64,000 nt of DNA from Chlorobium sp. GTDB lineage: Bacteria > Bacteroidota > Chlorobiia > Chlorobiales > Chlorobiaceae. A program made the translations under genes and the position numbers. This document shows positions 34,801 through 35,675 of this stretch, piece by piece. The notes under the pieces are model-generated. The model was not told where the DNA came from. It worked only from the letters and a program-made list of their open reading frames with translations, and ran no database searches. Numbering within the stretch: position 1 is the first letter of the stretch; each line of letters begins with the position of its first letter. The stretch spans positions 3,949 through 67,948 of the forward strand of contig SZYA01000026.1 in the NCBI GenBank assembly GCA_005843815.1. The letters are read 5' to 3'.

Positions 34801-35675
34801 AGCTGGTTCGTGTGGTTGCCAGTTATACGGACGCAAGGGGAACGTTGGAAAGTTACTTGACTAATACAAGTGAGAGGAGCTCAGCGACGACATCAGTAGT
34901 GAACATCAACGATGCACCCACGGGTGAAGTGACTATTACCGGAACCACCAGAGTGGGTCAGACACTTACGGCTGACGACCATACGCTGGCGGATGCAGAC
35001 GTTCTTGGTACGATCCACTACCAGTGGCAGGCCGGGGGTGTGGATATCAGCGGAGCGACGAATAAAACTTATGGATTGACCGCTTCTGAGCTTGGCAAGG
35101 TGATAACGGTCAAGGAGAGCTACACTGATGGAGGCGGAGCATCAGAGAGTGTGACAAGTGGAGCTACAACAGCGGTTTCGGCATCATCCTATGGTATCAC
35201 GGTCAATACCAAATATTGGAATAGTGAGACACTGATCAAGGGTGTAGAGCTGAAAACAGGGGCTCAAACTGGTGATACAGGTTCAGTGGTGCTGAGTGGC
35301 CATGCCGCGGGTCAAACGACCCTTACCCCTGCATTGACAGCGGATAGTGCGGCCAAAGGCGCTGTCGATCTGCTTGATACCATCGCTATTCTCAAGAGTA
35401 TTGTAGGACTGACGACCCTGAATGGCTATCAGCAGGTTGCTGCCGATTTTGACAAGGCTAACGGGGTAGATTTGAATGACGCTATTGCCATTCTCAAACA
35501 TGTTGTCGGTCTTCCAGCCCCGACACCGGAGTGGGCGTTTGTGGACAAGAGCGTTCTGCAGCCTGATCCTGCCCTCGCCATATCGCTCAATCTGACTGCC
35601 GATACCACGGTTGACCTGGTGGGCATTCTGAGAGGCGATGTTGATGGAAGCTGGTCTACCGCATTGCATGTATAA
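31815..35675 (+). CDS. 1286-aa mosaic surface protein: two PPC-like regions, a Calx-beta-like region, three copies of an ~80-aa 'GQTLTA..LAD.DGLG..YQW..YTD' module, two dystroglycan-type cadherin-like (CADG/He_PIG) domains and a dockerin-like C-terminus. No RTX repeats and no signal peptide.
   Basis: '[10 protein letters not shown]' and '[10 protein letters not shown]' fit the PPC pattern. '[31 protein letters not shown]...[29 protein letters not shown]' and '[48 protein letters not shown]' fit the CADG pattern. The N-terminus is '[12 protein letters not shown]'. Confidence 0.85.
   Translation: [1286 protein letters not shown]
35339..35513 (+). other. Dockerin-like duplicated Ca-loop/helix segment (hypothetical assignment)
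   Basis: '[24 protein letters not shown]' and '[24 protein letters not shown]' are two ~24-aa repeats spaced ~34 aa apart. They resemble dockerin repeats (D.D..G.v...D...iLk..vG). A third partial loop, 'RGDVDGSW', lies at the extreme C-terminus. Confidence 0.45.

Follow-up and report, generated by a model that had tools for sequence, protein, structure and literature searches.

The stretch analyzed here, which we call the window, comprises 64,000 nucleotides (nt) of contig SZYA01000026.1 from the metagenome-assembled genome (MAG) of an uncultured Chlorobium sp. Three large + strand genes, termed G1, G2 and G3, are set between housekeeping genes in this window. G1 (18141-31727, +) encodes an RTX giant of 4528 residues, in which a DUF4347 domain is N-terminal and the GGxGxD motif occurs 34 times. 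G2 (31815-35675, +) encodes a 1286-residue protein of immunoglobulin (Ig)-like repeats and is deposited as TLU55670.1, 'hypothetical protein'. G3 (35742-40697, +) encodes a 1651-residue protein, TLU55671.1, also 'hypothetical', in which an N-terminal domain that we call q3 is followed by cadherin/Ig repeats, an RTX block and a hydrophobic C-terminal helix. The subject of this report is the C-terminal module of G2, referred to below as the tail, and its relation to q3. We propose, with a probability of about 0.6, that G2 and G3 are a two-gene unit encoding a non-cellulosomal docking pair of the cohesin-dockerin type, in which the two proteins would be exported by type I secretion and folded by calcium, and the tail would bind q3.

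G2 and G3 are separated by an AT-rich spacer of 66 nt (35676-35741, +) that carries the ribosome-binding site AAAGGAG and lacks a terminator-like hairpin, and a terminator-like hairpin with a 12-bp stem lies directly 3′ of G3 (40713-40740, +). Because there is a ribosome-binding site and no hairpin between the genes, G2 and G3 are probably co-transcribed.

The C-terminal module of G2

The initial annotation had described two repeats of ~24 residues at the end of G2 and likened them to a dockerin. Both repeats are present. Repeat 1 (35340-35411, +; aa 1176-1199) consists of a degenerate half calcium loop followed by helix 1, and repeat 2 (35442-35513, +; aa 1210-1233) of an F-hand-type loop followed by helix 2; the start first given for repeat 1, 35339, is out of frame and 35340 is correct. 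The two repeats are identical at 14 of 24 residues. When the last 186 residues of G2 were shuffled 500 times, the best pair of 24-mers had a mean of 7.6 and a maximum of 11 identities, and none of the 500 shuffles reached 14. The tail thus has the tandem duplication of ~22-24 residues, each unit a calcium loop plus a helix, that is expected of dockerins. The full set of D/N ligands at positions 1, 3, 5, 9 and 12 is found in neither loop: loop 1 reads D, A, K, D, D at these positions (three of five ligands) and loop 2 reads D, D, A, D, D (four of five).

The conserved module is larger than the two repeats and covers ~105 residues (35358-35675, +). Helix 1 and helix 2 are followed by the strand PEWAFVD (35526-35546), a variable loop, and a further strand that runs into an invariant end (35610-35654), which includes the terminal RGDVDGSW that had been pointed out earlier (aa 1273-1280, nt 35631-35654). 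Invariant columns across the homologues fall in both helices, the W-F-V strand and the terminal G-D-V-x-G-S-W.

The ~105-residue alignment comprises 15 close homologues plus ~100 copies in 75 genome loci. Helix 1 has the consensus V-[DN]-L-x-D-A-I-x-I-L-K-x-I-V-G-L. After a linker come the second calcium loop and helix 2, then a strand with W-x-F-V and a variable loop, and the module closes with the invariant L-V-G-x-L-x-G-D-V-[DN]-G-S-[WYF]. In the betaproteobacterial tails loop 2 is a canonical F-hand, D-F-D-G-N-G-K-V-E-L-S-D (DFDGNGKVELSD), and loop 1 is truncated throughout the family. In an alignment of 38 members, A2, what is left of the calcium loop in repeat 1 is its second half, and the invariant C-terminal G-D-V-[DN]-G-S resembles the first half; this arrangement suggests a 'split' F-hand that would be closed by the C-terminus.

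Profile A2, built from these 38 members, was searched against PDB sequences, and all eight matches were dockerins. The best was 4uyp_B (E 6.9e-5), and the others included the double dockerin 8x39, the ScaH dockerin 8ajy_B, the CelS dockerin 1daq/2mte and 9qf9. Dockerins already ranked first in a single-sequence PDB search with the G2 tail. Below the thresholds of the curated families, 23 of the 38 members match Dockerin_1 (best E 0.0014) and 5 of the 38 match EF-hand_1. An AlphaFold2 (AF2) model of the tail places helices on both repeats and then three strands, with a predicted local distance difference test (pLDDT) of 56 and a predicted template-modelling score (pTM) of 0.44. A Foldseek search with this low-confidence model returned mostly dockerins in its top rows, with 1ohz_B at a target-normalised template-modelling (TM) score of 0.65, at E values above 1 that are not significant. 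The dockerin-like character first proposed for the G2 C-terminus therefore holds up, given PDB profile matches that are exclusively to dockerins and 23 of 38 relatives that weakly match Dockerin_1. Judged by its sequence, the G2 tail is a divergent dockerin relative that has additional strands at its C-terminal end, and both calcium loops of the window copy are degenerate.

Carriers of the tail are found among freshwater Chlorobiaceae MAGs and many MAGs of Comamonadaceae, other Burkholderiales and Rhodocyclales, with several tail genes per genome. The module is almost always C-terminal. In Chlorobiaceae 0-7 residues lie beyond it, and in most betaproteobacterial copies (loci L018-L079) GDVDGS[YFW] is followed by ~32 extra residues, with '...YFxxL...LNLxQFG[VI]Y' conserved at the extreme C-terminus. 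This extension may be the actual type I secretion signal of those proteins. Carriers of a C-terminal tail lack a signal peptide and many have 10-22 RTX nonapeptides, a predicted profile that fits type I secretion substrates. Four copies of the module are instead N-terminal in predicted lipoproteins, where they follow a lipobox (...LSACGGG or LLQACGGG). These are encoded by open reading frames at 15151-18249 (-) of L063, 5058-8192 (-) of L069, 6189-7013 of L065 and 2259-4241 of L068; in each, other domains follow the module and the terminal GDVDGSW is missing. Since the module occurs N-terminally in lipoproteins, it would be a folded domain in itself and more than a secretion signal.

Some features of the surveyed contigs deserve separate mention. 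Three contigs binned as Comamonadaceae (L002, L016 and L017) carry tails of the Chlorobiaceae type, lacking the extension and ~60 % identical to the window tail, and one of the three carries many TctC genes; these tails suggest that the module has moved from one phylum to another. Lake MAGs titled 'Bordetella parapertussis' (L022, L041, L046, L051, L060 and L073) have five or more tail genes, and the title is probably a mislabel of environmental Burkholderiales. The contigs of the first tail homologues end at repeats and are little informative. The termini of P0031, P0067 and P0082 resemble translated sequencing adaptors ('CLLYTSPSPRD', 'YLSLIHI', 'DRKSTRLNSSH') and are assembly artefacts at contig ends.

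The q3 domain of G3 and its coupling to the tail

The q3 domain spans the first 170 residues of G3 (35742-36251, +) and is predicted to form a cohesin-like beta-sandwich of nine strands. The strand motifs that the initial annotation had quoted for this region are present at nt 35856-36107. An AF2 model computed with 15 sequences has a pLDDT of 66.6 and a pTM of 0.65, and in a Foldseek search of the PDB the top 11 matches of this model were all type II cohesins (E 1.7e-4 to 1.5e-3, probability ~1.0), among them 1qzn, 4fl4_B, 3f2l, 3l8q, 5m0y_A and 2bm3. The Cohesin hidden Markov model (HMM), PF00963, gave no match at E ≤ 10 to G3 aa 1-175 or to the N-region of G1 (aa 185-335), and single-sequence PDB searches with the N-regions of G1 and G3 returned nothing relevant. 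When Pfam was run on 27 q3 members, Cohesin was matched by two (E 0.03) and no other family was matched by more than one. The family is conserved yet rare: a search of 1.84 billion proteins yields 49 representatives at E ≤ 1e-3. We regard cohesin-like as the best available reading of q3, with moderate strength.

Downstream of the cadherin/Ig repeats, G3 has five RTX nonapeptides (starts 40248, 40356, 40383, 40410 and 40437), and it ends in the hydrophobic helix ILIGVGAIGLLAWVFL (nt 40647-40694), which is preceded by 'VTPES'. The same type of C-terminus is kept in other proteins with an N-terminal q3 (P0056, P0057, P0060, P0101, P0102 and P0110). This terminus resembles PEP-CTERM without the basic tail and may be an anchor or sorting signal; identity with PEP-CTERM found no NCBIfam support and was rejected. 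In betaproteobacterial q3 proteins, q3 lies between an RTX-type '...GDKIDLS...' region and a C-terminus of ~75 residues that ends in ...LTPASLTFI.

The strongest result of the analysis is that the tail and q3 are coupled in genomes. In 8 of 8 cases a gene ending in the tail stops ~70 nt upstream of a gene with an N-terminal q3; these are the window, L005, L008, L011 and four metagenome loci (L080-L083) that were found by a scan with a 5-sequence alignment. Moreover, the tail is fused to q3 in one polypeptide in 11 of the 49 q3 representatives, where q3 lies 45-140 residues, often 45-55, upstream of the tail, and proteins of L033 and L087 carry the same fusion. Proteins with an N-terminal q3 are without a tail of their own, P0061 excepted. 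In L018 (Rhodocyclales; 548-13204), L026 (Burkholderiales; 3-10471) and L077 (Rhodoferax; 1-9481), the gene for the q3 protein is followed in order by genes for a TolC-like outer-membrane efflux protein, an ABC transporter, HlyD and one or more tail proteins. The cohesin-like N-region of G3, earlier named as a candidate partner of the G2 tail, accordingly stands as the best candidate, on the 11 top Foldseek matches to type II cohesins, the gene neighbourhood, the fusions and the pairing proposed in a preprint that is discussed below.

A second N-region, in G1, had also been put forward as cohesin-like. The DUF4347 domain of G1 (18258-18644, +), which is N-terminal, is followed by a conserved, beta-rich region that we call q1 (18693-19145, +; aa 185-335), and the strand motifs quoted for it are present at nt 18801-19004. 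Its pattern of conservation marks q1 as a real conserved domain, without a match in Pfam or the PDB. In Chlorobiaceae q1 is N-proximal in proteins with the tail at their C-terminus (L005, L008 and L011), and a divergent q1 of ~20 % identity stands directly upstream of the tail in L009, L012-L015, P0005-7 and P0030-35. Alignment of q1 with q3 by hhalign is colinear over ~105 columns and weak, with probabilities of 4-17.5 %, the best being 17.5 % with an E of 0.0014. The suggestion that G2 docks onto both of its RTX neighbours is largely right for G2 and G3, given the remote homology of the tail to dockerins, the predicted fold of q3, the genomic coupling and the preprint; a three-part assembly of G1, G2 and G3 is unproven, and the type I secretion setting had been overlooked. 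Elsewhere in G1, residues 848-867 (20682-20741) read GTGTSTGTGTGTGTGTGTST and are encoded by tandem GGTACT hexanucleotides, a run that could vary in length by slipped-strand events.

A proposed docking pair and its alternatives

In the mechanism that we propose, the last ~105 residues of G2 would be a divergent dockerin-type module built of two F-hand helices and three strands and closed by the invariant GDVDGSW, and the first ~170 residues of G3 a cohesin-like beta-sandwich. Both proteins would leave the cell C-terminus first through a type I secretion system whose genes would lie elsewhere in the genome. Neither has a signal peptide, as no hydrophobic N-terminus can be read from the sequence. 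Outside the cell, calcium would fold the modules, and the G2 tail would then bind the N-terminal domain of G3. The product would be an extended Ig-repeat fibre, held at the cell surface or reaching another cell through the RTX block and the C-terminal hydrophobic helix of G3. The export route, the calcium dependence, the physical binding and the anchoring partner are all steps that we infer. The initial annotation had correctly noted that G2 lacks RTX repeats, a signal peptide and a hydrophobic tail, and had argued for docking from these absences; G2 has 0 GGxGxD nonapeptides, against 34 in G1 and 5 in G3, and neither of its termini is hydrophobic. That argument does not carry over: the tail is located where type I substrates carry their signal, and therefore the missing RTX repeats and signal peptide are no argument for piggy-back export.

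Several observations weigh against the proposed docking pair. The window tail has no Pfam match at E ≤ 10, Dockerin_1 (PF00404) included, and no NCBIfam match, and the same holds for q1 and q3 of the window. The confidence of the tail model is low (pLDDT 56), and the calcium loops of the tail lack ligands at positions 3 and 5 (loop 1) and at position 5 (loop 2). Superpositions of q3 on cohesins reach a TM of ~0.41 at a root-mean-square deviation of ~10 Å, with near-equal TM for Ig-like domains of pilins. Profile searches of PDB sequences with q3 and q1 were empty, and hhalign comparisons of q1 and q3 with three verified type I cohesins of CipA were not significant. The 64-kb window holds no TolC, ABC or HlyD genes. 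Finally, the cohesin-like and dockerin-like modules are often in the same chain and could act in cis rather than in trans.

An alternative that we consider unlikely is that the tail serves mainly as a type I secretion signal and a calcium-triggered folding cap that would fold first, on emergence of the C-terminus from the secretion duct, and ratchet export in the manner of an RTX capping structure, so that its dockerin likeness would reflect a shared EF-hand-like calcium switch. The extreme C-terminal position of the module in Chlorobiaceae, with at most seven residues beyond it, is what such a role would predict, as are the missing signal peptides and frequent RTX repeats of its carriers, the tail genes that adjoin TolC/ABC/HlyD genes, and the lack of any other recognisable export signal in G2. 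However, the module is also found N-terminally in Sec/lipobox lipoproteins, where a type I signal is impossible, and the true C-terminus of most betaproteobacterial copies is formed by the ~32 residues after it. A signal or cap would also leave unexplained the 8/8 adjacency and the 11 fusions with a cohesin-like domain.

It is improbable, in our estimate, that a beta-sandwich (q3 or q1) and the tail make up one cis unit, such as an X-module-dockerin dyad or an intramolecular clasp, directed at a third target that could be a polysaccharide, an outer-membrane component or the surface of a partner bacterium, with G2 and G3 being neighbours by shared function. Most Chlorobiaceae tail proteins do have a q1-type domain directly upstream of the tail, and the q3-tail fusions of the 11 representatives, L033 and L087 have the same order at 45-140 residues. 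G2 itself, however, has neither q1 nor q3 before its tail, and an AlphaFold 3 model in the preprint pairs analogous modules in trans (10.64898/2026.03.19.712371). Proteins with an N-terminal q3, like G3, are without a tail (again excepting P0061), and a trans partner is therefore the simplest reading. A merely generic likeness, in which the tail is an EF-hand-like repeat pair and the N-domains are ordinary Ig-like adhesin spacers with no specific relation, is very hard to credit: no curated HMM reaches threshold and Ig domains of pilins or adhesins score alike at a Foldseek TM of ~0.4, but the profile finds dockerins alone despite thousands of EF-hand chains in the PDB, and fusions and conserved neighbourhood tie the very small q3 family to the tail far above chance.

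Beyond the G2-G3 docking pair, we tentatively offer a broader hypothesis that we hold to be possible rather than probable. The G2 tail and the G3 N-domain may each stand for a module family not yet catalogued, and the two families would make up a docking system that is tied to type I secretion and shared by freshwater Chlorobiaceae, Comamonadaceae and Rhodocyclales, with several 'dockerin' cargo proteins and few 'cohesin' proteins per genome. The frequent fused proteins could polymerise head to tail, and the terminal GDVDGSW could complete the truncated first calcium site. The central rod of phototrophic consortia belongs to the Comamonadaceae; if both partners of such consortia carry compatible modules, proteins of one species might dock onto those of the other.

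Should the pairing hold, cohesin-dockerin assembly would serve Gram-negative phototrophs and lake Betaproteobacteria in making or anchoring giant surface fibres that leave the cell by type I secretion. A pair of the same architecture is present in several uncultured Chlorobiaceae MAGs, and both module families also occur in Betaproteobacteria beside type I secretion operons, which fits a horizontal origin. The two small domains (105 and 170 aa) are concrete candidates for studies of how phototrophic consortia cohere. There is also an annotation gap, in that both modules are invisible to Pfam and NCBIfam and the proteins that carry them are annotated 'hypothetical'.

Gene neighbourhood and known systems

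The three genes are flanked upstream by gltB, gltD and clpX and downstream, on the - strand, by cimA/leuA, leuCD, leuB, ilvC, ilvB and ilvD; the flanking housekeeping genes of the window also include feoB and dnaK. Between clpX and G1 lies an AT-rich region of 1.1 kb (17050-18140; GC 0.42) that is without a sizeable open reading frame and has a few promoter-like sites; this region probably regulates the three-gene unit. The GC content of the G1-G2-G3 island is 0.50-0.535, against 0.47-0.53 in the flanks, and its base composition gives no sign of recent transfer.

The closest known system is that of Chlorobium chlorochromatii, the epibiont of 'Chlorochromatium aggregatum', described in a bioRxiv preprint of March 2026 (10.64898/2026.03.19.712371). 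In that species Cag_2037 (old tag Cag_1919), a protein of 1527 aa, has a type II cohesin at its N-terminus and a transmembrane helix at its C-terminus, together with nine Ig-like folds, a region resembling alginate epimerases and an RTX block. Cag_2038, encoded upstream of it, carries a DUF at the N-terminus, 18 Ig-like folds and, at the C-terminus, a dockerin. The pair is transcribed as a bicistronic mRNA, the dockerin is bound to the cohesin in an AlphaFold 3 model, and export by type I secretion with cohesin-dockerin docking was proposed for it. Like Cag_2038, G2 is an upstream Ig-repeat protein with a C-terminal dockerin-like module; like Cag_2037, G3 is a downstream protein in the range of ~1500-1650 aa with an N-terminal cohesin-like module, Ig/cadherin repeats, RTX repeats and a hydrophobic C-terminal helix. 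Gene order and architecture match, and by this comparison with the published description the two pairs are putative orthologues; a phmmer scan with the G3 N-domain returned no protein of ~1527 aa and no named C. chlorochromatii protein among the representatives or clusters. The two systems differ in that co-transcription was shown for the Cag pair and is deduced for G2 and G3 from the ribosome-binding site and the missing terminator, that G3 has no Pfam-detected alginate-lyase or epimerase-like region, that the DUF-type N-terminus of Cag_2038 is found here on a separate gene, the 4528-aa RTX protein G1, and that the window modules escape Pfam.

Because the preprint proposes the same system in C. 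chlorochromatii, the idea of G2-G3 docking is not new in kind, and we conclude that G2 and G3 are a further example, in a related species, of the docking pair already proposed there (10.64898/2026.03.19.712371). The wider occurrence of the modules alongside type I secretion genes in Betaproteobacteria from lakes, like the many fusions of tail and q3, appears to be undescribed within the literature searched, where no paper connects the modules with Comamonadaceae or with operons for type I secretion.

Structurally, the G3 N-domain is matched best by cellulosomal type II pairs, namely SdbA-CipA of Clostridium thermocellum and ScaB-ScaA of Acetivibrio cellulolyticus (2b59, 1qzn and 4fl4). As in cellulosomal dockerins, the G2-type tail has two helix-bearing repeats of the F-hand type, and as with the cellulosomal X-module, a beta-sandwich often stands directly upstream of it. 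Unlike those dockerins, the tail has three extra strands, an invariant terminal GDVDGSW and a truncated calcium loop 1. The systems as a whole also differ: the present hosts are Gram-negative and presumably export the proteins by type I secretion and not by Sec, there are no carbohydrate-active enzymes, and the sequence similarity lies below family thresholds.

Cohesin-like and dockerin-like modules outside cellulose degraders were reportedly surveyed by Peer et al. in 2009, with their function mostly untested, and that survey is said to have been built on recognisable family signatures. The modules described here differ in being unseen by Pfam and NCBIfam and in being tied to type I secretion operons. 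Giant adhesins of the RTX/type I class, such as LapA and MpIBP, have no signal peptide and consist of long Ig/cadherin-like extenders with C-terminal calcium-binding elements that fold outside the cell. G2 and G3 resemble them in the missing signal peptide, the Ig/cadherin-like repeats and the putative C-terminal calcium-binding elements, and TolC/ABC/HlyD genes lie nearby in relatives. In contrast to these adhesins, G2 is without RTX repeats, its terminal module is dockerin-like and not a beta-roll, and a dedicated cohesin-like partner domain is encoded by the next gene, G3.

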